Below are positions 5,468-30,607 of a stretch of 64,000 nt of DNA, piece by piece. The stretch is taken from positions 6,219 to 70,218 of the forward strand of contig CAZSWT010000003.1 of assembly GCA_964611035.1 (NCBI GenBank). The letters run 5' to 3'. Positions within the stretch are counted from its first letter, which is position 1. Every line of letters starts with the position of its first letter. This stretch comes from an uncultured Desulfobacteraceae bacterium (GTDB lineage: Bacteria; Desulfobacterota; DSM-4660; Desulfatiglandales; B25-G16). The position numbers and the translations under genes are program-made. The notes under the pieces are model-generated. The model was given only the letters and a program-made list of their open reading frames with translations. It searched no databases and was not told the origin of the DNA.

Positions 5468-5492
5468 ATGATAATAGCCCCGCGGGTAACGT

Positions 5493-6902: not shown

Positions 6903-6928
6903 CGTGATGACGTATAGCTCCTTTGTTG

Positions 6929-7777: not shown

Positions 7778-7888
7778 TTTCCGTCCCCGAAGGACTCTTA
7801 GTGCATAAGTACATTAATATTCCGACTAATAGTGTTGTTCTCATAAAAACTCATTTTATTCGCTCATGATGCCCATTTTGGGATTCAT

Positions 7889-8188: not shown

Positions 8189-8269
8189 ATAAATCTTTTT
8201 CCAAAAGTGGCCAAAATCGCTCATAAAACGCTTTTTACGAATTTGTCAATAGTGAGATTACGAAATTTT

Positions 8270-9811
8270 CTAAAACCGAAACCTCAACTCTGTTCCTATA
8301 AAATGGTTTTTCTCTTTTCTATCCTTCACATTTTCAACATTATTGATTTCTTCAAAACAATACCCGAACGTAATAGTTGACCATTTCTTGAAATTATATC
8401 CTGCTTCCAGGGAATATTGATATTTTTCTTGGGTACTTTTCTTGCTTATTCCGTTTTTTTCATTGTCGAAACCTATTGTGTAGAAAAAACTATCTTTTAT
8501 TGTATGTGCCAATTCAATAAAAAGGTCGTGTGAGTCGGTGCCGGCGTGATGCCCAAACACCCTTCCATAGTTTTTCATTGGCCAATAAGAATGTTCATAC
8601 CAGGCGCCTGGACAACTTTTTGGAGAAAGATCGGCGTATTCGGCTCTCAATTTTAATCCTTGCGCCAGAAAGATATCGTTGAAAACCATTCCTAGCAGGT
8701 AAGCCTTTTTGTATGGTAGAGTTGCCTCGTCTTCTCCGCCCCATTCTGCATATAATTTTAAGGAATGAGCTACTGGTAAAATGGTAGCGAGGTTTGGTAT
8801 TGTGAGAGCGGCATCTACAGCAAATTCCTTGTTGCTGTCGCGGTTGTCGCCAGCTCTGTTCCCACTACTGAATAGTATGTAGAGATAATCTGATAGATCA
8901 AGATTCTCAATGCCCGGTCTATCACCACCAAAATGGGCGAGATAGGACATTCCAAACTCAAAAAAGGGGTGAGGTTTAAAATCAAACCTTAGACCAAAAA
9001 GTTCGGAGTTGGGCGGATGTTCGGAAATTGCTTTATCGTCTAATGTTGAATAGAGCAGAGTATATCGAAAGGGTCCTAAGTATCTAAAAATCCAAGGCAG
9101 AAGTGTGGCTCGTGGATTGGATATCTTGATCATTTCAAAAGGACGGGCATTGTTTGAAATAAGAAGTGCGCCATGATAGCCAGGGCCCCACCAAAGAGAG
9201 TCTTTTCCCCATTCGATCTCGAAATTATCAACGGTAAACTTCACATACCCTTTGTGAATTGTGAATTCGGTTTCGTCATTCCCTTCAATGCTTTGATATT
9301 TTTGATTATAGATATACAGAGGTTGAATATAAAAAGAAAAGACTTTCCATAGTCGGGCCCTTGATTGAAACTGAATTATCGCATTGCTTCCATCAAAGGA
9401 GTGTATACCTTCATTATTAAACATTGAGAACGGACCATTGAGGAAGTTGTAGTGCATGGAGAATTCATCCAAAGGTTTGATAAAGGTTCCCGGGGCACTT
9501 CCCCGAATTCTGGCCTCGGAGATTTCCTCATCATAGTCTTCTACCATTCTTTTAAGGACTTTGGAGAATGAAGATGGAATATTGTCGATCTCAGAATAAT
9601 CGACTGCTTCAGCCAATAATCTCCCTGCTTCATCCCGGGTAAAGGGTTGTGTTGATGAAATGCTGCTTTTAATTAGTCCTTGAGAAATCAGGGTATCTAT
9701 GTCCGTGTAAAACGAAGAATCCAGAGGAATGTTTACAGAGGCGTATGATAAGCTAAAGATGCTTAAGGTGAAAAAAACAATGAGTGCTATTCTTAGCTTT
9801 GGAATTCGCAT
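8270..9811 (-). CDS. wzi: Wzi-like capsule assembly outer-membrane protein
   Basis: The track ORF starts at 9910. The likely start is 9811 (MRIPKLRIALIVFFTLSIFSLSYA signal peptide). The N-terminal LDSSFYTDIDTLISQGLI..TRDEAGRLLAEA pattern and an aromatic-rich beta-barrel-like remainder resemble Wzi. Confidence 0.6.
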   Translation of the reverse strand: MRIPKLRIALIVFFTLSIFSLSYASVNIPLDSSFYTDIDTLISQGLIKSSISSTQPFTRDEAGRLLAEAVDYSEIDNIPSSFSKVLKRMVEDYDEEISEARIRGSAPGTFIKPLDEFSMHYNFLNGPFSMFNNEGIHSFDGSNAIIQFQSRARLWKVFSFYIQPLYIYNQKYQSIEGNDETEFTIHKGYVKFTVDNFEIEWGKDSLWWGPGYHGALLISNNARPFEMIKISNPRATLLPWIFRYLGPFRYTLLYSTLDDKAISEHPPNSELFGLRFDFKPHPFFEFGMSYLAHFGGDRPGIENLDLSDYLYILFSSGNRAGDNRDSNKEFAVDAALTIPNLATILPVAHSLKLYAEWGGEDEATLPYKKAYLLGMVFNDIFLAQGLKLRAEYADLSPKSCPGAWYEHSYWPMKNYGRVFGHHAGTDSHDLFIELAHTIKDSFFYTIGFDNEKNGISKKSTQEKYQYSLEAGYNFKKWSTITFGYCFEEINNVENVKDRKEKNHFIGTELRFRF

Positions 9812-10083
9812 ATTTCTATCAAAAATCCCACCTGCGGCGAATGATACTATTCCACGAAGCATTGGCTGCCGCTCACGGGATGGGGAGAACGGACCGAAGG
9901 GGTTCCGCAAAGTGGGAATTCTACAGGGTGAATTAGGTTTTGCAAAGGTTTTGCTTGAGTCTATCTTTATACAGCTCCGCCCCTTGAGTTACATTACTAA
10001 CTCAATAGGAATGTTGTTTCAGTGTCTCTTTTGTGCATTTTTTATGCCAGTTTTTGCTTTTTATTATTTCCCCTTGATTTACT

Positions 10084-14088: not shown

Positions 14089-14814
14089 ATGAGTGCAGAT
14101 AAAAATACATCAAAGAATCTTCGAAAGCCAAAGTTGAAAACTACCCTTGCATCGTCGGGCCTACTCCTCCCCGAACTCTCTGTTCTCGTATCTGATTCAG
14201 AAAGAGATGCCGCCTATGACCGCTTAAGGGAACTGGCAGTTGATGACAATATTCTTTCCAAACCCTCTATTCAATCCCGGAAAAAAATATGGACAAAACT
14301 ACTTGATCGATACAAATTTGACGCCAAAGATCAGTCCTTTCAACTTTGGTGGAGCTTAATTCCTGAAAGCGAGAGTTATGATTTAGCACAACTCGCCATC
14401 TTACGCTGGGCTCAATCTGACCTCCTGCTCAGATTTTTGTGGAGAGAAATTTACCTTCCAAGAAAAAACATGGATTCTTCTATTCAATCTGAAGATATAA
14501 TAGGTTTTATTCATGAAATGAAGGGAACGCTTATACCTAAACAGTTCTTTTTGGGGCGTTCTCGTGAAGTTCAAGTAAGTATTGCCCAGCATTTCCTGTT
14601 GGTCCTGAGGGAATGTGGAGCAGCTAAAGGAAAAAAGAATAAGGTGTTTGTCACCATTCCGGTTGGAGAAAATGCATCTCGTTATGCAGTTCATCTCGCC
14701 AGACAAGAATGTCCTGGCTCTCATGAGATTCTTAACCATTGGGCTTTGAGATGGTGGGGAGGCTATTCTTCGAAAGCTGATGAGATTCTCAGACAGATTG
14801 AATCTTATCGTTAA
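14089..14814 (+). CDS. brxA: BREX protein BrxA (DUF1819-like)
   Basis: 241 aa, first gene of the canonical type 1 BREX order. ..DNILSKPSIQSRKKIWTKLLDRY.. resembles the BrxA helical core. Confidence 0.8.
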   Translation: MSADKNTSKNLRKPKLKTTLASSGLLLPELSVLVSDSERDAAYDRLRELAVDDNILSKPSIQSRKKIWTKLLDRYKFDAKDQSFQLWWSLIPESESYDLAQLAILRWAQSDLLLRFLWREIYLPRKNMDSSIQSEDIIGFIHEMKGTLIPKQFFLGRSREVQVSIAQHFLLVLRECGAAKGKKNKVFVTIPVGENASRYAVHLARQECPGSHEILNHWALRWWGGYSSKADEILRQIESYR

Positions 14815-14848
14815 GTCACACTCTTTGAGATTTTGCTAAAGGTGATTT

Positions 14849-15394
14849 ATGTCCGAAAGGTCCCTTCAAGAATTGGTAAATGACACGGTGAATGCTTGCC
14901 GAAACCCTGTCAGTTCCGATTTCGATCCTTCAGCTGTTGTTGTATGCCCCCCCAATTGGATTCACGTACTCGAACAAAGGGTGTTGGCAGAGCTTCAGCC
15001 CGAGATACATAATGAAGATTGTGTTGTCATTTCTGCCGAAGGCTTGATGCTTCAGTTCTGGGAAGATGCCGCATCCAAAGGAGATAAGATTGAAGATCTG
15101 TCCCCACGAAATATGCGTCGTTTTATGGATTATGAAGAGCATGAATACCTTGGACGGCTTTTTACGGCTATTTTAAATGCCTTCGAAAAGCATCCTAATC
15201 TTAAAACCTGTCTCATAACCGGCCTTTGGATATTCTATCCATCCGTCCATACATCCACAATTCTTTCTGACCTAAAAAACCGCAATTTAAAAGGTCAGGT
15301 CATTTTCCTTTACCCCGGGGTTGATCAGGATGGTATCTATCTAAAACTATTGGGACTTGATGAAGGTTTCGGCTACAAGGCACGGAGGATTTAA
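14849..15394 (+). CDS. brxB: BREX protein BrxB (DUF1788-like)
   Basis: 181 aa, second position in the operon. The C-terminal ..FLYPGVDQDG..LKLLGL....GYKARRI matches the remembered BrxB ending (..YPG..G..L.LFG...YRA). Confidence 0.8.
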   Translation: MSERSLQELVNDTVNACRNPVSSDFDPSAVVVCPPNWIHVLEQRVLAELQPEIHNEDCVVISAEGLMLQFWEDAASKGDKIEDLSPRNMRRFMDYEEHEYLGRLFTAILNAFEKHPNLKTCLITGLWIFYPSVHTSTILSDLKNRNLKGQVIFLYPGVDQDGIYLKLLGLDEGFGYKARRI

Positions 15395-15395
15395 T

Positions 15396-18300
15396 ATGTC
15401 CACCAAATTAAAGGAAGTACTCAAAAAAGATCTTGTCCGGGATAAGGTTGATCCGACCGTCAAAGTGGATGATAACAAACGCCTGTATATAGACATACGG
15501 GAGTTTGTGATAACCGAAGAGATTGCCGTTGATGCCCTAAAACTGGTACGTGCCATATCAGGTCAGCTGCAAGAGCTTCAACGAGGCTCCATCCCTCAGG
15601 CGGTTGTGGATGCATGCTGGCTTTCAGGCTTTTTCGGAACGGGGAAAAGTCACTTAGCCAAGCTTATTGCCGCGTTGATTCAAAATCCGGTCCTGACACA
15701 TAAGGAAATTTCTTTATCGGCACTTGAGCTTTTCTATCAAACCCACGAACCGATTAACCAGGTTGAGAAGGACCTAGAGGCCGAACTCAAAACGCTTTCC
15801 CGCCTTGCTAATCCGGTACTTATCGTGTTTGAAATTACTGCGGCCAAAAAAGGGGTTCATGATTCCTTATCGGAAATTTTCTTGAGAAAATTCTTTGAAG
15901 GCCTTGGGTATGCCTCCAGCCTGTGGATTGCACGTATTGAAAGGGATCTTGATGAACGGGGCCTCTATGATGAGTTCAAGAAGGCCGTTTCTGATAAAGG
16001 AATGGGTAACTGGGAAGAAGAGCGCCGGGCGTCCCAAAGGGTCCCTGCAATATTAATGCAGGTGCTGCCAGAGGTGGACTCCACATACTACCGCAACGAG
16101 GCCGATGTGGAGGCAGGGATCGAAAAGGCAGAAGATGAGGATGAGGCCTCCCCTGAAGGGCTTGTAGAAGAGATAAACAGATATCTTGAGCGTAAGGCGC
16201 AGGGAGGAGATGGGAGAATACCGCTGGCTTTTTTCGTGGTTGATGAAGTCGGTCAGTTTATTGCAGCAAATAGCGAGCGTATTGAAGAAATCCGAAGCAT
16301 CGTGGAAAGGGGCGCAATGGTTGGAAACGGTCGGATATTCACTGTCATGACATCCCAGGAAGATCTGGCTGCCGCCATAGGAGGGGTTGTCAAGGGAGAT
16401 CAGATGAACAAACTCAATGCTCGTTTTGGGGTAAAAATTGACCTCAAAAGCCAGAATGTGGCTAAAATTGTGCAGGAAAGACTGCTTATTAAGACTCCAA
16501 CAGGTGCTACCCAGCTTACAGAGTCTTTTCGTGATTGGGAAGGGCCGATTAGCGAGATTGAAAACCTCCAGCTACGAGGTGTTTCCTATCCCACAAGCGA
16601 CCCGGCATCATTTACCGCCCACTACCCGCTGCTGTCCTATCAGGTGCAATTAGCACAGGATATACTGGCCACTTTACGAGGGCCTCGCCTTAGCGGCACG
16701 GAACGTAGCATGATCCAGATTGTCCAGGAGGCAGTGGCCGCTCGCTCTGAAGATGATCTGGGTGTACTGATTCCATTCGATGCCGTATTCGAGGCCAATG
16801 AAAGCGAGCTTTCAAGTATTCACCACCTGGGGACTCATGGTGTCAGGGAGATCAATGGGTCAGATAAAAAATTAGGGTGGAGCGATACTACGGATTTCGC
16901 ACAACCGTCCAGGATACTTAAGGTCCTCTACCTCATCCAACGTTTGGAGGAAAAAAGATGGATACCCCAAAAAGCGGATACAATTACAAAGCTGATGGCG
17001 GATCATGTAGAGATTAACCTCTCAGCCCTCAGGGAGAAAGTCACAAAAGGTCTGGAAAAGCTTGTTTCAGCCAGCATGGTCTCCTTCGATGGTGAGTCCT
17101 ATCATTTTCTGAGTCAGGAAGAGAGAGAGATTGAGCAATATTTTCTGGATAGAAAAGGGAAAGTCAGGATACCTGATCTTGAAAGAGATATTAAAGATCG
17201 TGGCAGGGCGATCCTGGCCGCAAACAAGATTACAGATGGGACTCAACAGTACCAGCTAAGATACGGTTCATCGGGTCAGGGCCTATTCGGCTTTGAGACC
17301 AAGTTAGATGGGGAGGTTATCTCACCTTCGGGTGGTGGTCCGCTACAGCTTGAGATCTACACCCCGCTTTCAGGTGTAAAGCTTGAACAGATTCGCACAC
17401 TCAATCTGGCTGACGGCCCTCAGGGGAAAACCGTCTATTGGATTGCTGATGAATCCCAAAAGGCTGACTTGGCTGAAACCCTTCGCCAGATTCGCGCACT
17501 GGAAGAGACGATCAATCATTACCAGCCTAAAGCAGATAGGGATGAAATTTCAGCGGCTGCCAAAGATGCGGTTCGAAAGAAAAATACTGATCTAACCCGC
17601 GCGCAAAAGAAAGCAGATGACTTTATCTCTCAAACTTTTATGAAGGGTCGCTTGCTATTCTCAGGTGAAGAACACACCCTGCCTGCCCCGGAAGCCGATT
17701 CACTGAAGAAGGTTCTTGCTATTGCCGGAAATGTTGTTATCCTAAACCTTTTTGACCGGTTTCATCTTGCAGACAAGGCTTACGATGACAAAGATTCTGT
17801 TTATAAGGCCATTTTTAATCCTGCAGGCAACCTCGCCACTTTGGAAGGTATTCGCAATTTCAACTTAGTAGACACTCAAGGCCACATAAAAGCACAAACC
17901 GGAATAGTCAGTGAAATGCAGGGAGTTCTAACTGCCCTTGAAAATACTCAGGCGGTTGTAAAGGCCCAGGATATCAGACATAAGCTGCAGGATATACCCT
18001 ATGGCTGGCCCCGGGGAGCGATCCAATTAGGATCAGCAGCTCTATTTCGGTGCGGCCAGATAGAGATTACGCATAAAGGAAATCCTGTTTATGATTTCCG
18101 TCAACTGCAGGACGCTTACAAGGTCTTTTCAAAGATCAGCTCGTTTGATGCCCTTGAGATAAGAAGTGTTACGGATATCCTTACCCCTGAAGAGATTCAG
18201 ACAACTTATCTCTTTTGCAAGAATACCCTCCAAATGGAGGACGTCACTGAAAGCGTTAACGACATTTTTCTTCATTTCAGGGACTATCGAACGGGGCTGG

Positions 18301-19160
18301 AACATTTTAAGACAACACTCGCAGATTTTGTGGCCCAAGGATTGCCTCTGCCCAATCCGATCCAGGAAAAAGCCACCTTGCTTGAAGCTTCAAAAACTAA
18401 AAACAAACCCCAGGAGCTGGTTAAATGGATACTGGATAATCAGGACGACCTGAAAAAACTTCATGAGCAAGTAAGCCAGGTAAAGGATTTTGTTGAGAGC
18501 AATAAACTCGCGCTTCAAAACGCGTTACCTCTTATTAAAAGAGCCGAGGCCTCCCAGGTACTGAAGCAGAAAGATAAGGACGGCTCAATCCCGGAAGCGA
18601 TCAACCAGCTCAAACACCTCATCGAAAACCGTGAGGTGGTGTCCAAATGGGCCGATTTTCAGACCTATCGTGCAGTAGTGGAAAACGCTTATCGTTCAGC
18701 CTATGAAGAGTATAGGAAGGCATTTGGAAAAGAGGTGCAAGCACTTGAACAAAGTGTCAAAACACGGCCTAAATTTGCGTCCCTGCAGTCTGATAAACAG
18801 GAAACCGTCTTTACAAAATGGTTTGGCAGTCATGGGCTTGTAAGGGCCGGAATCTCACAACATCCTGTTGGCACTCTCAAAGAGCTGTTAGATGCGGATC
18901 AAGCCACTTCCCTCGATGCCCTGGCAGGTCGTGTCGGGACTGTTCCAGGGCTGTTAGCCGATATCCTTGTGGACATTCAAGAATTAGGCAGAAAACCAGA
19001 AGAAGAGGAGAGAGAACCAAGGATGCGCACGTGGCGGCCAAAGGCTATCACAAAGGGCATGGTCATCCGAAAAGATGAAGCGATGGAAATCGCCGATGAA
19101 TTTAGACAGGAATTGGAAGAGCAGTTTGAAGAAGGCGTGGAGGAAGTCATTATCCAATGA
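15396..19160 (+). CDS. brxC: BREX P-loop ATPase BrxC/PglY
   Basis: The track ORF starts at 15357. The likely ATG is 15396 (GGAGGA upstream, just after the brxB stop). About 1254 aa. Walker A GFFGTGKSH, Walker B FFVVDEVGQF, long helical C-terminus. Confidence 0.9.
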   Translation: MSTKLKEVLKKDLVRDKVDPTVKVDDNKRLYIDIREFVITEEIAVDALKLVRAISGQLQELQRGSIPQAVVDACWLSGFFGTGKSHLAKLIAALIQNPVLTHKEISLSALELFYQTHEPINQVEKDLEAELKTLSRLANPVLIVFEITAAKKGVHDSLSEIFLRKFFEGLGYASSLWIARIERDLDERGLYDEFKKAVSDKGMGNWEEERRASQRVPAILMQVLPEVDSTYYRNEADVEAGIEKAEDEDEASPEGLVEEINRYLERKAQGGDGRIPLAFFVVDEVGQFIAANSERIEEIRSIVERGAMVGNGRIFTVMTSQEDLAAAIGGVVKGDQMNKLNARFGVKIDLKSQNVAKIVQERLLIKTPTGATQLTESFRDWEGPISEIENLQLRGVSYPTSDPASFTAHYPLLSYQVQLAQDILATLRGPRLSGTERSMIQIVQEAVAARSEDDLGVLIPFDAVFEANESELSSIHHLGTHGVREINGSDKKLGWSDTTDFAQPSRILKVLYLIQRLEEKRWIPQKADTITKLMADHVEINLSALREKVTKGLEKLVSASMVSFDGESYHFLSQEEREIEQYFLDRKGKVRIPDLERDIKDRGRAILAANKITDGTQQYQLRYGSSGQGLFGFETKLDGEVISPSGGGPLQLEIYTPLSGVKLEQIRTLNLADGPQGKTVYWIADESQKADLAETLRQIRALEETINHYQPKADRDEISAAAKDAVRKKNTDLTRAQKKADDFISQTFMKGRLLFSGEEHTLPAPEADSLKKVLAIAGNVVILNLFDRFHLADKAYDDKDSVYKAIFNPAGNLATLEGIRNFNLVDTQGHIKAQTGIVSEMQGVLTALENTQAVVKAQDIRHKLQDIPYGWPRGAIQLGSAALFRCGQIEITHKGNPVYDFRQLQDAYKVFSKISSFDALEIRSVTDILTPEEIQTTYLFCKNTLQMEDVTESVNDIFLHFRDYRTGLEHFKTTLADFVAQGLPLPNPIQEKATLLEASKTKNKPQELVKWILDNQDDLKKLHEQVSQVKDFVESNKLALQNALPLIKRAEASQVLKQKDKDGSIPEAINQLKHLIENREVVSKWADFQTYRAVVENAYRSAYEEYRKAFGKEVQALEQSVKTRPKFASLQSDKQETVFTKWFGSHGLVRAGISQHPVGTLKELLDADQATSLDALAGRVGTVPGLLADILVDIQELGRKPEEEEREPRMRTWRPKAITKGMVIRKDEAMEIADEFRQELEEQFEEGVEEVIIQ

Positions 19161-22100
19161 GCAGCTACGGTCTCAGTTCGGAAACCAAGAAGTCGGTCAA
19201 ATCAACGGTCCTCGCTTTAAGGAAGTTATTAGAAGGCGAGTTTGATCCTGATACCGGTGAGCCTATTCCGCCCGGCGGTGACGTCGCGAGGCAAATCTCA
19301 CGATATGGCATTTTAGTGAATAAGCCTGAGTCGCTCAAAAACGAAAATGCTCCAGATTATCTGACTGATGAAGAAAAGAAGAAACGAGAACGCATCTCTG
19401 CAGCCATAAAGCGTGAGGTCGCTATTTTTGGAAAGCTCTCTGATAAGGCCGCTTTGAGACGAGGCATGCGGGCATTTATTCGCCAAACCAGCTATACCTG
19501 GGTAAACCGTCTCTTGGGCCTTCGGTGCATGGAGGCACGGGGGTTGCTCAAGGATGATCGTGGTGAGCTTGATTTTGTGGTTACTCCTTCGGATGATTAT
19601 GGAGGACTGCCTCGAAGGGCGTGGCGAATCAAAGGGGAAGATCCTGCAAAGTGGCAGACTGCCAAGCTATATGATCTTCAGTGCGAAGCCATCGCTGACG
19701 CCTGTCGCCAGCTTACTCAAGAAATCAAAGTCTTATTTGATCCTGAACATGACTACGGCCTCATCTGGCCGTCGCCCCCGGCCTTAAATACTCTCCTTCA
19801 AAAGATTCAAGAATTGGATAAGATTGCAACCCCCAGCCCTTTTACATCACCAGATTTCTTAGGATGGGTCTACCAATATTTCCAGACCATAGACAAAGAT
19901 CTGGTATTTAAAGCCGCTTCTAAAAAGAAAAAGAAGATAGAAAAAGACGATATTATCCCTGCGACACAAATCTATACCGAACACTACATGGTGGAATATC
20001 TGGTCCAGAATACCTTAGGCAGGTTCTGGTTGGAGATGCACCCCGACTCCAAATTATCGGCAAAATGGGCTTATTACGTAAAACCTCCTGAAGAAAACCC
20101 ACCAATTGAAAGAGAACTCAAAAAAGCGATTGAGATCAAGCTGATGGACCCTGCCCTGGGAAGCGGGCATTTCCACTTGGTTGCCTTTGATCTGCTTTTG
20201 GATATGTATGAAGAGGAAATTGAAAATGCTGGTCAACCCGGATGGCCGGACACTCCTTCAGTCGAAGACAAAAAGGATATTCCTGCCGCCATATTGGAGC
20301 ATAACCTGTTCGGAATTGACATAGATGCCCGCTCCATTCAGCTTTCCTCTTTGGTACTTGTGATGAAGACTCGTGAGTCCGGTTATGATGGACCAATTGA
20401 CCATCTCAATTTGGTAGTGGCCAATAGCGCCCCATTTGAATCTGAGGCATGGTATCAATTCCTCCACAGCTTGGAAAAAGAGGGAAAGCATAGTGTAGCC
20501 AGGGTTCTGGCTGCCCTGGGTATCCAGCTAAAAAACCTGGATGAATTCGGATCGCTCCTTCGCATCGAAGATGAGATGCAAAAGATTATTCAAGACGAGA
20601 AGAAGCAATGGATAGTTCAGGCTAAGATGGGTCCAGAACAAGATTACCTTTTCCCTGAAATGGCCAAGCCCAGGCAAGAAAAACTACCCTTTGAGACTGC
20701 AATTACGGACGAAACTTTTTTTGATCGCCTGGGGTCTGCGGTTGCAATAGAACTTGATAGCTTTTATCAAAAGGCGCGACAGGAAGGTTTTGCAGAAGAG
20801 GCTATTATGGTTGCCGATGCAGAGCGAGGATTTGACTTTGCTAAACTGACTCTTCAGCGATATGATGTAGTTTATACGAACCCTCCTTATATGGGTAGTG
20901 GTAATATGGGGGATCTTCTGAAGCAGTTCATAAATGCTTATTACAAACCTGGAAAAAGAGATCTTTATGCTGCTTTTATTCTGCGTTGCTGCGCTCTTAC
21001 CAGTGAGAATGGCTATGTTGGGATGGTAACCCAACATGGCTGGATGTTTTTAAGAAGCTTCGAGGATTTACGCGCTGTCCCCGAAAAAAAGCTCATAAAG
21101 GGCAATTTCGCAGGTCTTTTGCGCGAGGGACGTTTTGAAACACTGGCTCACCTTGGACCAGGAGCATTTTCCGAAATCAGTGGTGAAGTAGTGAACACTG
21201 CACTCTTTTCCTTCAAAAATATACCACCTATTCCTGAACACAGGCTAACAGCATTCCGAGTCCTCGCAGCAAAGCACCCTGAGCAAAAGGCAGAGTTTTT
21301 ACGTGAAGCAGTGGGAGTACTACCATAGTACTTCTGGCGAGCGAATCATACACTTAAAAGTTACACAAGGAGTAACAGAGTGATCAAGACATCTTCTATT
21401 CATCCAGCTGTTTTTCAGCCTCGTCAGAGCCGCTTTATAGACATCCCACAGGCACCATTTTCTTATTGGTTGAGAGATCGTTTTTTGGAGCTATTGTCAG
21501 GTCTGACGCTCGACAAGGTGTCAAAGGTGTGCCAAGGCCTTGTTACTGCGGACGATACTCGATTTGTTCGTTTCTTTTGGGAGGTTTCTTCCAAGATCTG
21601 GTTAAAACCTCTTGACGCACGACACTGGGTAGGCTTCGTAAAAGGGGGTGGGTATGGTAGATGGTACGGCCAGCAATATTGGGTAGTGGACTGGGAAAGA
21701 AATGGAGAAAGAATTAAGGCGTCATCAAATCCTCGAGTTCAAAACGAGAGTTACTATTTTAAAGAGGGGTGGACCTATAGCTATATGGCTAGAGGATCAC
21801 TTGGGGTACGACAGCTCCCAAAGGATATTATCTTCTGTGACCTATCTGCGGGTGTATTTCCCAACAGACAATTGCCCGGACTCTCCATTTGTCTAAATTC
21901 TCGGTTATCATCGTTCATTATTCGGGCAATTAGCCCTAGAATTCAACTGCGTGAAAGCTATGTTCAAAGGATCCCTCTTCCCAAGAAAATACCTAACTCA
22001 TTTTCATTGGTTGAGAATATTCTTGTTGGTTTGAAAAAGCGTTTGGTCGAAAGAGACGTGATCGAAATGACTTTTACAAACTGGAAAATTGGAAATATGA

Positions 22101-23452
22101 CGCTGAGGAGCTGCTATTTTTCTAAAATACAGGATTCCGAGGTCATTGCAACAGCCTTGCATACAATAGAAGCTGTTTGCGAAAAATTGTTGATAAATGC
22201 TTACAGCCTCGACGAGGAAGATACTGCTGCGGTTATGGCCGAAACTGGAGAACCCTCAGGGTGGTTTCCATTGATTAGAGGTTACGATACTATACCAGAA
22301 GTCCCGCAGGGGATTTTCAATTTACCCGAGGAGATAATGAACCATTTTGAGAGTCAAAAAAGAGAGAATCTCTCCCATGATGAACTGGATACGATTAAAC
22401 TGCGTCTAAAGGTTCTATATGAAGCAGGGCCAGGTTCAAAAGCTGAAGATGAAAAGAATTTGGAATCCTTTGGAGATGATGATAAAAAAAACTTTGATAA
22501 AGGAGCACGTATACCTATCCCTGCTGATACCTTTATTGAAGAGCTTTCCCATAAGCTCAAAATACACCCGATATCTATCTATTGGCTCCTTAAAGAAATG
22601 CGTGAAAAAGAAGATCTTGTATGTCCGTCGGAATTAAAACTGTATGCTGAGGACTATGTAAGCGTCATGATTATCCATATGCTGGGTTACCAGTGGCCAA
22701 AGCAAGTTGAAGCAGGTGAACCTCTGCCCGATTGGGCCGATGACGACGGGATTATTCCGCTTACCGATGGATTGGGAGAAACAACTTTATTGGATCGGAT
22801 AAGAAAACGTTTTGGTGCGGATTTTAGGGAAGAAAAAGAAGCATCCATAGAGTCTGAGTTTTATAATATTGTTGGGAAATCTCTGGAACGGTGGCTGGAG
22901 GAAGACTTGTTTGCTCGGCATGTGAAGCAGTTTAAGAATCGGCCCATTGCCTGGCATATTGTTAGTGATCCTTCTGTGGTTAACCATGAGACAGGGCAAA
23001 GCGGAAAGGGGAAAAGGAAAGGTGGCAAGAAAAAACATAAACCCGCTTTTTCTGTGATGATTCATTATCACCGTTTTGTGGATGGAGATAAAGGATATGG
23101 GAAGCTGTTGCGCCTGAAAAACAAATACCTTGAAAAACTTATGTCCCAGACACGATCAGAATTGGAATCCCTACGCGGCAGAGGAGATGACCCTAAAACC
23201 TTTGATCGTATAGCTGAATTAGATCGAAAATTGGTTGAATTAGAGGATTTCAGGGAGAGATTGGAGCGGATTCAGGAGGGTAAGGACCCTGAATCAAGTA
23301 TATTTGTACGGTGGAAAAGCACTGAGGAACAGCCCCAGGGCTGGAGGCCGGACATAAACGATGGTGTAAAAATAAATATCGCACCATGGGAACGCCTTGG
23401 GATGTTTCCTGTTAAAAAAATTGTCGGAGAAGTCGAAAGGGCGCCTGTGTAA
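19157..23452 (+). pseudogene. pglX: BREX N6-adenine DNA methyltransferase PglX, split by one in-frame TAG
   Basis: ORFs 19157..21328 (723 aa, with LMDPALGSGHF and YTNPPYMG methyltransferase motifs) and 21380..23452 (690 aa, with IPQAPFSYWL and DINDGVKINIAPW PglX-type motifs) are in the same frame. They are separated only by TAG (21326-21328) plus 17 sense codons. ATGA overlap with brxC. Confidence 0.85.
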
Positions 23453-23465
23453 TATAGGACATAGA

Positions 23466-23531
23466 TTTACACAGATTTGCACAGATAACAAAAAAGAAAA
23501 ATCCGTGTTCATCTGTGTTTCATCAGTGTCC
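23466..23531. repeat. cacagat/atctgtg repeat element in the pglX-pglZ spacer
   Basis: tttacacagatttgcacagata (23466-23487) and atccgtgttcatctgtgtttcatcagtgtcc (23501-23531). acacagat (23470-23477) is the reverse complement of atctgtgt (23511-23518). From memory this resembles an extragenic motif (translating as ICVNLC) seen in other bacteria. Confidence 0.4.
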
Positions 23532-23548
23532 TCAAAAACCTAAATCAT

Positions 23549-26212
23549 ATGAATAAATCAGCCATAGAAAAATGGTTAATAGATGAATTTTCTAAACGTT
23601 TTCAGTACAAGGTAAGCGAATACCTTGCTACGCTCATCTGGTTTGACCCGAATCGGTATTGGCTCTCATCAATACCATGGCTGGTAGGCAGGTCGGCCAA
23701 TTGGACATTTTCATTGGAAGAAGAGAACAAAGTAGCGATGAAGTTGGTTGCAGTCGGTTCTGATATACCTGAGGGAAAAGGCCAAAGTCCCCTTAAAATC
23801 CGTCTTTCTATCCTCACAGATCGAAACTCTTATACTGATCAGAACGGTTTGGTAGATTTTAAACAGATTTCGCGTTGGATTATTTATTACCCTTATCCAG
23901 TTGAATGGCTCAATGAAGAGACCCGGCCTAAAAAGAAGCCTGCCATGTCATGGCTAATGCCTTTTTGCGAGGCGGGCCTGGAATGGGGTCGAAGAGGGGG
24001 CGACGAAGAGAAATTGCCTGCCTTTTTGCGCGCCCACAGCCTGGATCTCACCAAAGACAAAAAGCAACTGACGGAATTATACCACCTCACCAAGACCGAC
24101 CGTTCGGCATCCCCTATTTCTCGTCTTGTTGTCCAAAACCTGGATAAGCCAGTTGAGTTCTGGGAGGGGAAGTCATGGGATTTGAATAAAGTCCGGAATG
24201 AACTGGTGGGGGATCTGGGCAGACAAACAGAGGAGTTATTGGTAGATCCTGAAGCCACTGTAACGTTGTTACACGAGCGAGGTGTTTTGGATGATTTCTT
24301 TGCTCGGTTGGAGAGCTATCTTGGAAAGACATGGTATTCTGACAGCGTAATAGCAAACCCCGCAGGTTTCAGCCGGGATCTTGTAAGGCATGTGGCATTA
24401 TCCACAACATGGAAGCTTACAGGCTATGATACAGCGTTCCCTTTCAGCCCGGAGCTACCACCCCAATATAAGACTGACCATTGTAAGGAAACCATTCTTG
24501 ACTGGCTGAAAATACCGGAAGTTGGTGAGGCATATGTTAAAAAATGCCAAAGCCTGGAAAAGGAAGGTCTCAATCTTATCGGAAATGTAGATACCAAGAT
24601 AAATGGACATGTCTTTCCACATATTATCTTGAAACAATGGCATGAGGTAAAGCAGAGACTTGAAAGTGCTGCCGGTACCTCAGTGAATAATATTCGATCT
24701 GTCCTGAAAGATATCCATATTGAAGACTATGACAAGGTGTGGGATCGGCTCATGCCAGGAGAGCTGGGCTGGCATTGGCTTTCTTCACTTAAGGGGATAG
24801 AAAAAAGGATTGTTGACGGAGAGTCCTGGTTGATCAAGTCTGATGCTGATGATCTGGAAGGGTGCATTACACACTTTACCGATTCAGAGAATGGATGGTG
24901 GAGGATTGATGAAATTTTCAGAAAGCTCCTGGTCCTTGCAGTGGATGATCCCGATAGTGATTTAATAAAATCTCTGGCTTTTCCATTGTACAATTCTTGG
25001 ATTGCGGCAGCCGGGCAGCATTTTACAAAAGCGCTCATTAAAAAAACCGACCTGCAATCGCTGAAGAAAATTCCCTTCATTACAAAGGCCGCTGAAACAG
25101 TCTGGTCACTGCCTGATGGAAATAAACGGAAGGCTATAATCATTACGGACGCCTTACGCTATGATTTAGCCATGGACGTTAGCAACTACTTGGAAAAGTC
25201 GGGATTTAAGGTAGATATGAAACCCTGGCTTGCGGATCTCCCCTCAAAAACCGAGGTAGGAATGAGCAGGTTGCTTCCCGATTGCGATCTCGCAATGCGA
25301 CTTAAGAGCAAGAAAATTGAGATTATCCATAATGGGAAAAATTTTGGGGTGAAGGGCAACCGGGTCGAATTTATAAAGGAAAAATTAGGGGAGGATTTAA
25401 CTACACTTGAGATGAAAGATGTAAGCAAAGCCAATCTCAAAGACATAAAATCAAAGGTCCTGGCGGTATTTAGCCGTGATATAGATGCTGAGGGAGAGGC
25501 CAAGGGACTGGGCTTTTTTAAGGACATTGAAAAGGAAATAACTGAAATTGTCCAAAAGGTTCAAGTGCTTGCCCGATGCGGATACCAGGAAGTGCATATC
25601 ATAACTGACCATGGCTTTTTGCTTTCTTCGTCGGATGGGCTGGTAAAGTGGGAAAGCCCCCAAGGTTCGGATGCATGCGGGCGCCGTTTTGCCATGATTC
25701 CCAAGAATATCGGGACTGATTTACCGGCAATCCCCTCCCCATGGAATGATGACCATTGGCTGGCATTGCCGCCTGCTGGTACAGTATTTAAGGCCAGTGG
25801 TCAGACTGAATACCTCCATGGCGGAGCATCATTTCAGGAAATCGTTATTCCTCAAATCTGTGCTGAGGTGCAGGAGCAAGCTGTTCGTGTTACACTGACC
25901 ATGATAGTGGAGAAGGACGTTATTGAGTCCGGCATAGTAAAGATTGATTTAAAAGGCGAAAGCCCAGTCGATCAATTACCGCTCTCCTTCATGCCCACAG
26001 TGGTGTTGTCCAGATCCGGTTATTTAGTAGCAGAGCGGAAAGGTAAGGTTGTTTCTAAAACCAAGAATTTTGAGTTAGGGGTAGGAGATCAACTGAAATT
26101 AACCCTCTTTCTGGATCGAGGCCTTAAACAGGGGGAGGATGTAGATATAATTGCGAGAGATGATAAGGAATTACTAACAACCAAAACATTAAAGGTGGTC
26201 CGAGATGTCTAA
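23549..26212 (+). CDS. pglZ: BREX alkaline-phosphatase-superfamily protein PglZ
   Basis: 887 aa, fifth position in the operon. PglZ-domain core ..AIIITDALRYDL.. and ..IITDHGF... Confidence 0.9.
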   Translation: MNKSAIEKWLIDEFSKRFQYKVSEYLATLIWFDPNRYWLSSIPWLVGRSANWTFSLEEENKVAMKLVAVGSDIPEGKGQSPLKIRLSILTDRNSYTDQNGLVDFKQISRWIIYYPYPVEWLNEETRPKKKPAMSWLMPFCEAGLEWGRRGGDEEKLPAFLRAHSLDLTKDKKQLTELYHLTKTDRSASPISRLVVQNLDKPVEFWEGKSWDLNKVRNELVGDLGRQTEELLVDPEATVTLLHERGVLDDFFARLESYLGKTWYSDSVIANPAGFSRDLVRHVALSTTWKLTGYDTAFPFSPELPPQYKTDHCKETILDWLKIPEVGEAYVKKCQSLEKEGLNLIGNVDTKINGHVFPHIILKQWHEVKQRLESAAGTSVNNIRSVLKDIHIEDYDKVWDRLMPGELGWHWLSSLKGIEKRIVDGESWLIKSDADDLEGCITHFTDSENGWWRIDEIFRKLLVLAVDDPDSDLIKSLAFPLYNSWIAAAGQHFTKALIKKTDLQSLKKIPFITKAAETVWSLPDGNKRKAIIITDALRYDLAMDVSNYLEKSGFKVDMKPWLADLPSKTEVGMSRLLPDCDLAMRLKSKKIEIIHNGKNFGVKGNRVEFIKEKLGEDLTTLEMKDVSKANLKDIKSKVLAVFSRDIDAEGEAKGLGFFKDIEKEITEIVQKVQVLARCGYQEVHIITDHGFLLSSSDGLVKWESPQGSDACGRRFAMIPKNIGTDLPAIPSPWNDDHWLALPPAGTVFKASGQTEYLHGGASFQEIVIPQICAEVQEQAVRVTLTMIVEKDVIESGIVKIDLKGESPVDQLPLSFMPTVVLSRSGYLVAERKGKVVSKTKNFELGVGDQLKLTLFLDRGLKQGEDVDIIARDDKELLTTKTLKVVRDV

Positions 26213-28292
26213 CGAGGAAAAAGAAAACACATCTTTTCTTTCAATTCCTGACTCGCAACCAGATGAATTGGACAGCAAAGTTAGTGAACTCTTCCCGGGA
26301 GTTACGGTGCGAAAGGACCTTGTCAGGAGGATGCGCAGCGCCTACAGTGTGCCTACTTTTGTGATTGAGTTTTTACTCGGAAGGTACTGTTCTGATCCTG
26401 ATGATGATGTCGTGCGCGAGGGAATGGAATATGTGAGGCAAACTCTTTCTCATAAATATGCCAAGCCTGATGAGAGAGAATTGATCAAAGCGCGGATTGA
26501 GCAGCAGCGCCGATATGAACTCATTGAAAAGGTGGGCGTTCGGTTGGTTGAAGAAGATAACCAGTATTGGGCTGAACTAAAAAACATCGACATAAAATAC
26601 GTCAGGATTGACTCATCTGAGATCAGAAAACATGAAAGGCTGCTAACTGGAGGTCTCTGGGCGGAAGTTGAAATTGAGTATGATGATAGCTTTCAATTCA
26701 AGGGCAAAACGCGCCCTTTTATAATCCGAGAGCTACGCCCCATCCAGGTTTCGAACCTTGAATTGGATAATTTCCGTCAAAATCGCACAAAGTTTACAAC
26801 GGAGGAATGGCTTAACTTTCTCATACGAAGCCTCGGCTTTAGAGAAGACCATCCTTATTTCACACAAAGACGAAAATTGCTTCATGTGGCCCGGTTGATA
26901 CCCTTAGTGGAAAAAAACTACAACCTGGTTGAATTGGGGCCAAGGGGCACGGGCAAGAGTTTTGTTTACCAACAGGTCAGTCCCTATTCGCATCTTATTT
27001 CAGGTGGACAGACTACAGCAGCGCAGATGTTCGTTAATCTGAACACAGGCCAAAAAGGACTTGTTGCCCTTTGGGATGTTGTGGCTTTTGATGAGATGCC
27101 AAGGGGAGGATTTGAAGATAAGAAGGTCGTAGATATCTGTAAAAACTATATGGAGGATGGGCAGTTTAGCCGTGGAAGAGAGATCATAGCAGCTGAAGGG
27201 TCAGTGGTGTTTGTGGGGAATATAGATGGTGAAATTGAAACCATTGTTCGGACCAGCCATCTTTTTTATCCCATGCCAAAGCAGATGGACCTTGCTTTCT
27301 TTGATCGTATCCACTCTTACCTTCCGGGGTGGGAGTTCGAAAAGACTGGGGATGAATATTACACGTCTCACTTAGGATTGGTATCGGATTTTCTTGCAGA
27401 GGTATTAACCAAATTACGAAAAGATAGCTATACACATCGGCCTGAAGAACTGTTCCGTTTTGGGAGCCACCTTTCTGGTAGGGACCAAAAGGCGGTTCGA
27501 AAGACCGTTTCAGGCCTGATCAAACTGCTGCACCCTTATGGCGAAGTATCCAAAGATGAACTTTCAGGATACATTGAATTTGCCATGGAGATGAGACGAA
27601 GGGTAAAAGAACAGCTCAAGAAAATGGGTGGCATGGAATACTGGGATGTGAATTTTTCTTACATAGACAAAGAAACAGTTCAGGAGAGTTTTGTCCAGTT
27701 ACCTGAAACTGGCGGCGGGCAGATTATTCCCGCAGAAACCATGTCACCTGGAACCGTTTATAGCATTGGACTCGATGCGGAGGATAAAAAGATTGCCCTT
27801 TTCCTCATACAAACTCAGGCAAACAAAGGGTCAGGTCGTATCATCCCCCTCGGCAGTTTGAGTTCACGCATGAAAGAGGCAATCAAGGTAGCAGATGCCT
27901 ACTTGAAAGCAAATATCAAGAATTTTGGAATTGAAAAGGACTTAAAGAGCTACGACTTTTCAATTCAAGCCTTAAATCTGAGCCAGGCAAAAGAGGGCAC
28001 GGAGACTGCTGTGGCCTTTTATGTTTCTATGGTATCAGCTATCTTGGAAAAACCTGTAAAGGAACAGACGGTTATATTAGGGGAAATGAGTGTCGGGGGC
28101 ATCTTAATGAGGGTGAGCAATTTAGTTGAGCGAATGCAACTGGCATTGGATTCCGGTGCCAAAAGAATCCTTTTGCCGTCTGAGAACAAACGTGATCTTC
28201 CTGATGTGCCTGATACCCTGCTCAACAAAATTCAGCCTGTATTCTATACGGACCCTACTAATGCAGCCATCAGGGCTATGGGTTTGGAATAG
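26205..28292 (+). CDS. brxL: BREX Lon-like protease BrxL
   Basis: 695 aa. 8-nt overlap with pglZ. P-loop GPRGTGKS and a C-terminal Lon-protease-like domain. Last gene of the type 1 order. Confidence 0.9.
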   Translation: MSNEEKENTSFLSIPDSQPDELDSKVSELFPGVTVRKDLVRRMRSAYSVPTFVIEFLLGRYCSDPDDDVVREGMEYVRQTLSHKYAKPDERELIKARIEQQRRYELIEKVGVRLVEEDNQYWAELKNIDIKYVRIDSSEIRKHERLLTGGLWAEVEIEYDDSFQFKGKTRPFIIRELRPIQVSNLELDNFRQNRTKFTTEEWLNFLIRSLGFREDHPYFTQRRKLLHVARLIPLVEKNYNLVELGPRGTGKSFVYQQVSPYSHLISGGQTTAAQMFVNLNTGQKGLVALWDVVAFDEMPRGGFEDKKVVDICKNYMEDGQFSRGREIIAAEGSVVFVGNIDGEIETIVRTSHLFYPMPKQMDLAFFDRIHSYLPGWEFEKTGDEYYTSHLGLVSDFLAEVLTKLRKDSYTHRPEELFRFGSHLSGRDQKAVRKTVSGLIKLLHPYGEVSKDELSGYIEFAMEMRRRVKEQLKKMGGMEYWDVNFSYIDKETVQESFVQLPETGGGQIIPAETMSPGTVYSIGLDAEDKKIALFLIQTQANKGSGRIIPLGSLSSRMKEAIKVADAYLKANIKNFGIEKDLKSYDFSIQALNLSQAKEGTETAVAFYVSMVSAILEKPVKEQTVILGEMSVGGILMRVSNLVERMQLALDSGAKRILLPSENKRDLPDVPDTLLNKIQPVFYTDPTNAAIRAMGLE

Positions 28293-28404: not shown

Positions 28405-29463
28405 ATGAAGAAAAGAGTGGCTAGGTCAAATGTGAAGTTTAACCCGGTCTTAAGCTCTGATTCGGCAAAAAAGGCTAGATTGGATTCATTTGCAAGCCCA
28501 AAGCATCCCAAATCGATTTGTGTCGTTAATTATAAAGGGGGAGTAGGCAAAACGACGATTACGTGTTTATTGGGCTATTATATTAGCCAACTTGGTGTAA
28601 GAGTGAAAAGGGGAAAAGGAAGTTTAAAAAGAGGTAGAAAGGTTCTTCTGCTCGATATTGACCCGCAATGTAGCTTGTCTTTGGCTGTTGGTTTCGATCC
28701 TGAACAGGTTAATAAGACGGATTTTACTATGTATAATTTGGTTAGGCCTTCGAAGTGGTCAAAAATTACCAAAACCAAATTCAGTCAGTACATTCAGAAG
28801 GTTCCCGATTCGCTAGCTCCAAAGGATTTATATATTATTCCCGGTTCATTTGATGTTGATGATCTTGACATGGAGATTGCAAAAAGCATCGCAATTGATG
28901 GAGAAAGAAGGAAGGATGAGTTATTTCTATACTGCAAGCAAATGCTTAACGGATTTCAAGATTATGATTTTGTGATTGTTGATTGCCCTCCAAACAAAAT
29001 GTTCCTTACGCAAGCAATGCTTAGGGCGTCTACTTATTATCTGCCTGTAACTATCCCCGACCAAATATCTATCTATGGGATGCCGCGATTACTGAGATGG
29101 GTTAGAAACATCCCAAAAGGTGAAAGACCACTTATGCTTGGCTATGTCATGAATGCCATAAATCGCACTGGCGGCCCACCAGGTGGTAAAGTATATAGCC
29201 AACAAATAGGGGAAAGAGATTTAGAAAAGAGTATAAGAAATGATCTAATGCCGATTGAAAGGAAAATTTTCGGCACAAATCCGATTGTGGGACAAATACC
29301 CAGATTGGATAGAATTGCGAAATTTCTTTCAGAAAGGGGAAGTAAGTTTACCAGATTTGAATTTTCTGAGAGAACTTCTGGGCAAGCTACAATTGAGGAA
29401 TGCGTTACCGAAATAGTCAAAACAATTTTTGAAAGGATAAAAAAGTACAATGCCGAAACATGA
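28405..29463 (+). CDS. ParA/Soj-family ATPase with atypical insertions
   Basis: 352 aa. AAGGAG SD. Deviant Walker A KGGVGKTT (aa 44-51) and Walker B VIVDCPP. It has a basic N-terminal extension of about 37 aa and a 14-aa VRVKRGKGSLKRGR insert before LLLDIDPQ. Confidence 0.8.
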   Translation: MKKRVARSNVKFNPVLSSDSAKKARLDSFASPKHPKSICVVNYKGGVGKTTITCLLGYYISQLGVRVKRGKGSLKRGRKVLLLDIDPQCSLSLAVGFDPEQVNKTDFTMYNLVRPSKWSKITKTKFSQYIQKVPDSLAPKDLYIIPGSFDVDDLDMEIAKSIAIDGERRKDELFLYCKQMLNGFQDYDFVIVDCPPNKMFLTQAMLRASTYYLPVTIPDQISIYGMPRLLRWVRNIPKGERPLMLGYVMNAINRTGGPPGGKVYSQQIGERDLEKSIRNDLMPIERKIFGTNPIVGQIPRLDRIAKFLSERGSKFTRFEFSERTSGQATIEECVTEIVKTIFERIKKYNAET

Positions 29464-29854
29464 AATAATACATAAGGCCGGTCAACCTATTACCGAGGAA
29501 ATAAGGTGGATAGTTGATAGATATTTTTATTTAAAAGAGATCGAAAAGCTCGAAAGATTAGGAGGTCGAATTTTGATTTCTATTGCAACACCTTATAAGA
29601 GTAAGAAGCCTAAAGGAATTACTATCGACGAAACATTTGTCGACAATCTTAAATCGAATAGAAATGATGTTGTTGAATTGAGAAATATTTTGGATGGATT
29701 AACAATAAAACAGTTAAAAGAGGCTTGCAGCTTAATTAAGCACCCGGTGCGATCGAATGCCACATCCGAAGAAATTAAAAGAGAACTTATTAGGAGCCTG
29801 CAAGCAGAGGATTTTTGGAGTCGAATTTCTCACAATAATAAAGAAAAATTATAA
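29450..29854 (+). CDS. small hypothetical protein with HeH/SAP-like C-terminal motif
   Basis: 134 aa. Overlaps the ParA-like gene by 14 nt. LDGLTIKQLKEACSLIK...SEEIKRELIRSL weakly resembles helix-extended-helix DNA-binding motifs. Confidence 0.5.
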   Translation: MPKHEIIHKAGQPITEEIRWIVDRYFYLKEIEKLERLGGRILISIATPYKSKKPKGITIDETFVDNLKSNRNDVVELRNILDGLTIKQLKEACSLIKHPVRSNATSEEIKRELIRSLQAEDFWSRISHNNKEKL

Positions 29855-30049
29855 TAATGTGTTTCAGATTGCCAAATCTTTCATTTAGACAAATTATAAA
29901 ATAAACGAGGAGGCCCTTAAAATTTTAAATAACTTAACATAGCGAGTCATAATCCGCTAAAAAGGGTATCTATATTACCCCTTATAAGTGTTATGGGTTC
30001 TGAAAGAATTTAAAAGTGGGCGCTATTACCAAAGAAAGGAGCAAGGAAC

Positions 30050-30319
30050 ATGAACAAAAGGGATTTAGTTAACGAGGTAGCAAAGGTCGTAAATACAAAA
30101 AAAGAGGCCAAGGTAGCAGTGGATTGTATTTTTTCAACCATTACCAAAGCATTAAAAAAGAAGGATCCGGTTACACTGATTGGTTTCGGAACCTTTAAAG
30201 TGGCACAAAGGAATGCCAGGAAAGGAAGAAATCCACAGACAGGACAAGAAATGACGATCAAGGCAAAGAAGGTCCCCAAGTTTGTAGCTGGGAAAGCCTT
30301 AAAGGATGCTGTAAGTTAA
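30050..30319 (+). CDS. hup: DNA-binding protein HU
   Basis: 89 aa. MNKRDLVNEVA..., the GFGTF..R.AR.GRNPQTG arm and a ..KAGKALKDAV end are a classic HU signature. GGAG SD. Confidence 0.9.
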   Translation: MNKRDLVNEVAKVVNTKKEAKVAVDCIFSTITKALKKKDPVTLIGFGTFKVAQRNARKGRNPQTGQEMTIKAKKVPKFVAGKALKDAVS

Positions 30320-30607
30320 TCATTATTAAAGGAGGATTGTAGTAATCAGGAAGGGAACATGGCCTCATATGGGCTTTGATATTTCTATCATATCCAAACT
30401 CTTGTAGTGTTGCACTTGTGAGTTGAATTCAGTCCTCATTAGTTGAAGATGCTGAGGTAACTATTCCCAAAATTTTGTCTTTGGCTTAAACTTGTGTTTA
30501 GTATAATATATCATCATTAGCCACAGATTTAGAATTGATATTAAATTAAAGCATGTAGCACGCTTCCCGTGGTTTGAAATGGTCATATAAGAATTCGACA
30601 GGTTCCT

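Follow-up and report, generated by a model that had tools for sequence, protein, structure and literature searches.

When a stop codon lies within the methyltransferase gene of a bacteriophage exclusion (BREX) system, is the gene broken, or is it encoded as two genes? The question is raised by pglX in a window of 64,000 nucleotides from an uncultured Desulfobacteraceae bacterium (assembly GCA_964611035.1, contig CAZSWT010000003.1, positions 6,219 to 70,218 of the forward strand; positions below are those of this window unless another locus is named). The pglX gene is reportedly a known hotspot of disruption, and an earlier note on this DNA, made from the sequence alone, had proposed that BREX is switched off here by a nonsense mutation. 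What that note described was found as stated: two open reading frames (ORFs) in the same frame are separated by a TAG at 21326-21328 and 17 sense codons (YFWRANHTLKSYTRSNR) preceding a GTG at 21380, and reading through the stop would give 723 + 1 + 17 + 690 = 1431 codons. The window thus contains two intact cistrons, each covering one lobe of PglX, which are here called pglX-N and pglX-C. With the same split boundary conserved in other genomes, and with a long junction that holds a ribosome-binding sequence and a start codon after the stop, the proposed inactivation is not supported. It is instead quite likely that pglX of the window is a genuine two-cistron gene and not a broken one, and a functional split PglX, which the earlier note had listed among its alternatives, is in our judgement the best-supported reading, held with good confidence.

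Two cistrons and a shared boundary

The pglX-C protein was searched against 5.8 billion proteins and the 120 best matches were analysed. These are mostly stand-alone proteins of ~660-760 amino acids (aa) with 35-47 % identity and no methyltransferase domain; N-half sequence is absent in 99 of the 120, and approximately 88 start within 70 residues of the target-recognition domain (TRD). Most stand-alone C halves start 2-10 aa before the stretch HP(A/V)VFRPLQxRFLTIPQxPLCYWLRERFFELLAG (35-58 % identity), the general form of this start motif across protein clusters being HPxVFRPxQxRFLxIPQxPxxYWL. On the other side of the boundary, stand-alone N halves (about 40 of them, 640-700 aa long) terminate 0-25 aa after FRLVGPKSPEEKDxLLRxAIxSL. 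The source names of the split halves include Nitrospira, Acidobacteria, Rokubacteria, Deltaproteobacteria/Desulfobacteraceae, Spirochaetales and Chloroflexota.

The same arrangement is found in the window, within one BREX-1 operon. pglX-N (C-terminus ...AFRVLAAKHPEQKAEFLREAVGVLP; last residues before the stop ...EQKAEFLREAVGVLP) ends after EEKDxLLRxA, and pglX-C starts a few residues before the conserved start motif and has a Shine-Dalgarno (SD) sequence of its own: AAGGAG at 21367-21372, unmentioned in the earlier note, lies 7 nucleotides (nt) 5' of the GTG. The head encoded behind this AAGGAG-N7-GTG is MIKTSSIHPAVFQPRQSRFIDIPQAPFSYWL, the N-terminus reads MIKTSSIHPAVFQPRQSRFIDIPQAPFSYWLRDRFLELLSG and residues ~10-30 are FQPRQSRFIDIPQAPFSYWL. 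At its own 5' end pglX-N overlaps the stop codon of brxC by 4 nt.

A C-half profile was used to collect 80 metagenome loci, and a scan of genome contigs with a single C-half protein gave three loci. pglX is fused in ~45 of the 80 metagenome loci. Both halves are visible in 15 other split operons, one BREX-1 operon in each case, where they lie 0.4-3.7 kb apart and in arbitrary frames (metagenome loci L005, L011, L013, L019, L022, L023, L034, L045, L049 and L072; the complete genome of Nitrospira sp. Kam-Ns4a; and L089, L090, L091 and the P0042 contig); in a further eight loci a C half is present and the 3.6-5 kb upstream of it contain no N half. The start of the C half shares 4 nt with the stop of the gene before it in 12 of 27 split loci. 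Stand-alone C halves are often preceded by a GGAGG-type SD sequence, in a GGAGG-N6-7-start pattern as in the window. Together, the overlaps and the SD sequences indicate that the C half is translated as its own cistron in the split family. A split with the same boundary in many genomes, named in the earlier note as an observation that would refute a nonsense mutation, was looked for and found, in several phyla.

The junction itself is well documented in this strain. Over 12-14 kb, junction included, assemblies of two public runs (SRR8556701 and SRR9700529, from Logan) show 100 % identity to the window; contigs L001 and L002 are of one and the same strain. The 723-aa and 690-aa products are kept as separate proteins on 10-13 contigs in NCBI, JGI and Logan. 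As these matching assemblies and records come from the same strain, they confirm the sequence and are not independent evolutionary evidence.

The position of the cut was placed on the structure of Salmonella PglX (PDB 8C45) by sequence match. pglX-N corresponds to residues 70-636 and pglX-C to residues 647-938, with N-half residue 715 aligned with residue 636 and C-half residue 16 with residue 647. In Salmonella PglX the hinge lies at residues 654-659, between the N-terminal methyltransferase and the C-terminal motif-recognition domains (Went et al., PMC11341690), and E. coli BrxX consists of two 'jaws', the N-terminal plus methyltransferase domains and the TRD plus C-terminal domain, with flexible hinge loops at 638-675 (Drobiazko et al., PMC11842806). 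The alignment and the published hinge positions thus put the split at the start of the hinge, and the conserved FxxIPxxPxxYW strand is retained on the C half. An AlphaFold2 model of pglX-C (predicted local distance difference test, pLDDT, 69; predicted template modelling score, pTM, 0.72) matches 8C45, 8Q56 and 9EWZ at E-values of 5e-12 to 4e-11 over 587-684 columns, and model and sequence match together show the TRD, the helical spacer and the BrxX-specific C-terminal domain to be present.

That the gene is pglX within a BREX operon, as the earlier note had recognised, is agreed upon by Pfam, PADLOC and the NCBIfam profile NF033452 (BREX-1 adenine methyltransferase; 1210 positions, curated cutoff 500 bits). 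The genes brxA-brxB-brxC-pglX-pglZ-brxL are co-oriented, in the order of a type 1 BREX system and separated by short gaps or overlaps from 14089 to 28292, and by Pfam and PADLOC the remaining BREX genes of the operon are intact. pglX-N matches Pfam Eco57I (1.6e-20)/N6_Mtase, PADLOC PglX and positions 15-639 of NF033452 (416 bits); the methyltransferase motifs are intact in its translation (motif I DPALGSGHF, motif IV TNPPYMG) and align to the corresponding region of 8C45. pglX-C has no match to any Pfam family, Methylase_S (PF01420) included; it matches positions 626-922 of PADLOC PglX and scores 201.5 bits against NF033452 as a whole protein in two matched stretches, the better one at positions 654-952. 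Each half therefore falls below the single-protein cutoff, and the summed matches reach 618 bits and do not overlap. The earlier note was also right to place the cut between the methyltransferase core and the C-terminal half, which serves recognition. Its figure of about 1200 aa for PglX holds for E. coli (1205 aa) and Salmonella (1225 aa), but fused members of the subfamily found in the window are ~1390-1450 aa long. The halves are also matched by half-length PglX models in PADLOC-DB, e.g. PDLC02526 (640 positions), PDLC02539 (706) and PDLC02516 (593), and such genes are thus already databased under the PglX label.

According to the two-cistron reading, pglX-N would encode the N-terminal helical domain and the S-adenosylmethionine-dependent N6-adenine methyltransferase domain, and pglX-C, translated from GTG 21380 behind its own AAGGAG, would encode the hinge strand, TRD, helical spacer and C-terminal domain. 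The two lobes are predicted to assemble non-covalently around DNA in the manner of HsdM and HsdS, perhaps via the conserved N-terminal strand of the C half and with the help of other BREX proteins. Together, the halves would provide recognition and methylation of the BREX site, and the system should be active. The locus is probably an ordinary working BREX system.

Some variation in PglX architecture was observed beside the hinge split. A class of PglX proteins of ~860-875 aa (P0153, P0158, P0161, P0171, P0174, P0175 and others) consists of the N half and, of the C half, only the initial ~200-230 residues. A second position of recurrent splitting, located after the TRD as in Brevibacterium casei (PMC9881135), is suggested by this class, part of which may simply be cut by contig ends. 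Stand-alone C halves with extra domains occur among several proteins (P0052, P0055, P0057; P0049, at L021 2287-4986 and L023 4992-7691; P0036, P0054, P0058, P0059, P0062, P0066, P0074); some have DUF559 (PF04480) and PF18741 nuclease-like inserts and one has Lon_C/ChlI Pfam matches. A group of ~905-928 aa has ~250 additional C-terminal residues.

Junction length, relatives and other readings of the stop codon

The length of the junction was measured as the number of codons between two anchors, N-half residue 716 and C-half residue 16. With one exception, the 42 fused loci have 10-17 codons; the exception (L009) has 39 and the window has 41, a length which is not obtainable by point mutation in a normal linker. 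The extra ~25 codons of the window contain the stop, the SD sequence and the start. The long junction of L009 (4934-5001; ...SLRESGSGAEREAEGVGHSANRSERLHPIVSRPLQ...) is the only one in a fused pglX and looks like an N tail of the split type followed by a C head; L009 may be a secondary re-fusion.

The nearest PglX relatives are found in metagenome-assembled genomes of Deltaproteobacteria. Different segments of the two genes have different closest relatives. Outside the N-half tail, junction and TRD, pglX-N and the final 270 residues of pglX-C show 70-87 % identity to close relatives, and those in which the junction is visible are fused. Residues 1-690 of pglX-N are 67-89 % identical to P0121 of its own lineage, whereas residues 691-723 are 38 % identical to P0121 and 45-58 % to tails of the split family. 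The best matches of pglX-C residues 1-250, the TRD, are stand-alone C halves (52-58 %), and residues 421-690 are 81-87 % identical to P0002-P0005. The fused P0002 and P0004 of the own lineage have different TRDs and are not among the top matches of the TRD segment. By these identities the N-half tail, junction and TRD look like one split-family module in an otherwise fused lineage, which suggests that a specificity module may have been exchanged together with its split junction. P0240, with about 93 % identity to the N half as judged by eye, lies on a 1.4-kb contig that lacks the junction. The odd tail of P0122 is uninformative since its gene ends 10 nt before the contig end, and the gene of P0003 begins 133 nt away from the end of its contig.

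A neighbour-joining tree was built for the TRD region (88 split, 44 fused and 4 unclear sequences). It places the window in a large clade of mostly split forms, with fused ones scattered among them, and the classical ~1200-aa PglX proteins form separate clades in which all are fused. Fused proteins of ~1390-1450 aa with short linkers are common in the subfamily among representatives at 50 % identity. Fusion and fission have evidently both occurred in this subfamily and both states are maintained.

It is against these results that the nonsense mutation has to be weighed. According to this explanation, a long-linker fused pglX has recently acquired a stop, which leaves a methyltransferase lobe without its TRD and BREX switched off. 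The two frames are the same, a single stop and no other lesion separates them, the halves are adjacent, and pglX is enriched among the targets of programmed inversions (PMC9881135). A near-consensus SD sequence at optimal spacing nevertheless precedes a start that is in register with those of ~80 stand-alone C halves, and the N-half tail stops in the natural range of split proteins and resembles their tails more than those of its own lineage. In the tree the TRD sits among mostly split forms, and no decay is seen across the 690 downstream codons. The stop thus lies in a junction ~25 codons longer than that of 41 of 42 fused genes, and it is followed by an SD sequence and a start, which is not what a nonsense pseudogene would show. 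We consider a nonsense mutation unlikely.

Several points do weigh against a functional two-cistron pglX, some of which favour the mutation directly. The window is the only split locus seen that has no cargo genes between the halves, with just 51 nt from one to the other. Such adjacency, taken with the shared frame and the single stop, is also how a nonsense mutation in a fused gene with a long linker would appear, and the fused L009 has a linker of similar length. Among relatives in which the junction is visible, the nearest ones (P0002 and P0004; 57-70 % identity) are fused. No close orthologue with the same TRD was found, and the age of the TAG is thus not datable. The first 28 residues of the pglX-C model have low confidence, as would be expected if this part depends on the partner. 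The C-terminal domain of Salmonella PglX could not be expressed alone (Went et al., PMC11341690), and the C lobe is therefore not always stable by itself. Finally, both methylation and defence at this locus are predictions, as is the function of split PglX in general.

Recoding of the stop, by suppression or with pyrrolysine, would give a PglX of ~1431 aa, either alone or beside the separate products, and would agree with the shared frame, the single TAG and the existence of fused relatives of ~1390-1450 aa. A perfect 10-bp hairpin also overlaps the stop (Table 1); it consists of two AGTACT palindromes, its 3' arm begins with the TAG of pglX-N and no T-run follows. The 121-nt region around it does not fold better than shuffled sequences (z -1.2), however, and TAG ends 8 of the 34 long ORFs in the window, brxL included, so that it is an ordinary stop here without depletion. 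No Pyl genes were seen in the window. A shared frame without a stop has a chance of ~0.13 (our own arithmetic: 1/3 x ~0.4 for 17 random codons), and an in-frame relation that arises by chance in ~13 % of cases carries little weight on its own. The arbitrary frames and kilobase distances at other split loci show that the split family does not need read-through. Translational readthrough, another alternative of the earlier note, is accordingly very unlikely. From the stop-codon usage in the window, reassignment of TAG is unlikely. A structure or terminator acting as an RNA signal in the spacer was rejected, since the terminator scan found no terminator-like site between the pglX halves and the folding was not significant.

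No finding speaks for an error of sequencing, base calling or assembly at 21326, which has next to no probability: the junction reads the same in both public-run assemblies, at NCBI and at JGI. A phase-variable pglX of the inversion shufflon type was rejected, as a search of window positions 12000-34000 for direct and inverted repeats (12-nt exact seed) found none of 22 nt or longer.

Cargo genes and comparison with known systems

The features of the window and the intervals between the halves at other loci are collected in Table 1. The start of brxC is taken from a mechanical ORF call at TTG 15357; the gene call on the identical contig L001 places it at window position 15396 (1254 aa).

Table 1 Features of the BREX operon in the window and intervals between pglX halves at other split loci
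Feature	Sequence	Coordinates	Strand	Description
brxA	window	14089..14814	+	Pfam BrxA, PADLOC BrxA
brxB	window	14849..15394	+	Pfam BrxB, PADLOC BrxB
brxC (ATPase)	window	15357..19160	+	PADLOC BrxC 8e-126; Pfam BrxC domains
pglX-N	window	19157..21328	+	N-terminal helical domain and gamma-class N6-adenine methyltransferase domain; 723 aa, ATG start
Hairpin	window	21313..21335	+	perfect 10 bp, arms GGGAGTACTA / TAGTACTTCT, loop CCA
pglX-N TAG stop	window	21326..21328	+	in the alignment, within the range of stops of stand-alone split-family N halves
Intercistronic spacer	window	21329..21379	+	51 nt, 39 % G+C, no cargo gene
pglX-C	window	21380..23452	+	hinge strand, TRD, helical spacer, C-terminal domain; 690 aa, GTG start
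pglZ	window	23549..26212	+	Pfam PglZ 9e-18
brxL (Lon-like)	window	26205..28292	+	Pfam BrxL_N, BrxL_ATPase, Lon_C; PADLOC BrxL 6e-268; ends in TAG
Inter-half interval	L005	2734-5968		
Inter-half interval	L013	4173-4971		
Inter-half interval	L022	3778-4998		
Inter-half interval	L023	1387-4899		
Inter-half interval	L045	2669-4698		
Inter-half interval	L086	6442-9004		
Inter-half interval	L089	6102-6834		
Inter-half interval	L090	3417-6976		
Inter-half interval	L091	3770-7004		

At all 15 other split loci with both halves visible, cargo genes lie between them. The complete genome of Nitrospira sp. Kam-Ns4a has brxA-B-C, pglX-N (672 aa), cargo, pglX-C (676 aa), two small ORFs, pglZ and brxL in this order, the cargo consisting of three MNT/HEPN pairs with small ORFs; several of the gene boundaries in this operon are 4-nt overlaps. 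The same split layout with differing cargo is present in L089, L090, L091 and the P0042 contig, the four sets being two small ORFs; MNT and HEPN; SIR2, HerA and MNT; and a 148-aa ORF with a ParA-like and a 490-aa protein. Pfam matches of intervening or upstream genes comprise HEPN, SIR2 and HerA, ParA-like with AAA_16 ATPase, AAA_15/AAA_21, AAA_13, Schlafen AlbA_2 with HATPase_c_4, helix-turn-helix (HTH) with Peptidase_M78, plus FRG, and RAMPs. At most of these loci the genes between the halves were of defence type (one to three MNT/HEPN pairs, SIR2 and HerA, ParA-like with the 490-aa ATPase, HTH-Peptidase_M78 with FRG), and Schlafen-HATPase, AAA_13, AAA_15/21 and RAMP genes were observed upstream of C halves that lack a visible N half. 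A 2026 survey counts most of these cargo classes among the auxiliary or backup effectors that lie within BREX loci (PMC12839542). The pglX junction looks like an insertion hotspot for accessory genes; cargo between the halves is a frequent accompaniment and not a necessary feature of the split architecture.

In L011 the region between the halves contains extra fragments at 2704-3183: one matches C-half residues 5-59 (56 % identity), and immediately behind it another matches N-half residues 601-719 (50 %). Recombination or duplication at the junction may have left them there.

Directly 3' of brxL and on the same strand, the window has a ParA-like ATPase (352 aa), a 134-aa ORF and a 905-aa SMC/AAA_21-type ATPase (28405-33325). 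The 905-aa ATPase is 22 % identical over ~870 residues to a 1012-aa ORF upstream of the stand-alone C half in L015. It is possible that these are accessory defence genes which may have been placed after the operon rather than inside pglX. The chromosomal flanks (1996-9910 and 35912-42975) encode capsule or exopolysaccharide export (Wzz-GNVR tyrosine kinase, Poly_export/SLBB, CpsB, Wzi) as well as the anaerobic ribonucleotide reductase NrdD and a molybdopterin oxidoreductase, a gene content which fits an anaerobic bacterium.

Single-chain PglX or BrxX is the norm in the systems studied so far, such as those of Salmonella D23580 (PDB 8C45/8Q56) and E. coli HS (PDB 9EWZ/8ZEK). The window shares with these the operon context brxA-B-C-pglX-pglZ-brxL and the canonical order of an N-terminal helical domain, methyltransferase (GxG, NPPY), hinge, TRD, helical spacer and C-terminal domain. 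It differs in that its PglX is divided into two cistrons where the hinge begins, the second having an SD sequence and a start of its own, and in that its subfamily is ~1390-1450 aa long when fused, compared to ~1210 aa. A type 1 BREX system with PglX encoded by two coding sequences has been described in B. casei (NZ_CP068173.1) and interpreted as functional (Milman et al. 2023, PMC9881135). There the split, which is linked with programmed inversions, lies after the variable TRD region and divides the N-terminal and middle parts from the C-terminus, whereas in the window it lies before the TRD at the methyltransferase/TRD hinge and the locus has no repeats of 22 nt or longer (12-nt exact seed). 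In the literature searched, B. casei was the only two-gene PglX found, and neither a split at the hinge nor junction cargo was described; the main text of the 2026 survey treats BrxX as one four-region protein and is silent on split or fission (PMC12839542).

Type I restriction-modification systems with HsdM and HsdS, and Type IIB systems with a separate S subunit, e.g. BcgI, offer a mechanistic analogy and not family membership. HsdS has two Methylase_S TRDs per subunit, whereas pglX-C has a single TRD by PglX alignment, no PF01420 match and a BrxX-specific C-terminal domain. Compared to the backup effectors embedded in BREX loci (HEPN, MNT-HEPN, Schlafen, OLD/AAA-type; PMC12839542), the same classes are found between the halves elsewhere, and none in the window.

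Taken more broadly, the results would fit a widespread and previously undescribed two-subunit PglX split at the hinge, with the junction as a preferred site for defence cassettes (MNT/HEPN, SIR2-HerA, Schlafen, ParA-ATPase pairs and others), with horizontal exchange of a specificity module made up of N-half tail, junction and TRD, and with the window as a cargo-free product of such an exchange in an otherwise fused lineage. We would put the chances of this whole picture being correct at about even.

Consequences for BREX annotation and biology

A stop inside pglX is routinely read as inactivation or phase variation of BREX, and each half of a split gene scores below the NCBI cutoff for PglX. 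The two-subunit architecture is under-recognised and matters for annotation, and its recognition would keep many environmental BREX systems from being mis-scored as defective. Naturally separate methyltransferase and specificity subunits would show that the covalent hinge is dispensable and would bring BREX closer to the logic of Type I restriction-modification. Split PglX also offers separable components for biochemistry, given that the C-terminal domain of the Salmonella protein failed to express on its own (PMC11341690), and its specificity could be re-engineered through swapping of subunits. The cargo found at the junction elsewhere suggests a defined hotspot through which BREX systems may gain second-line effectors.

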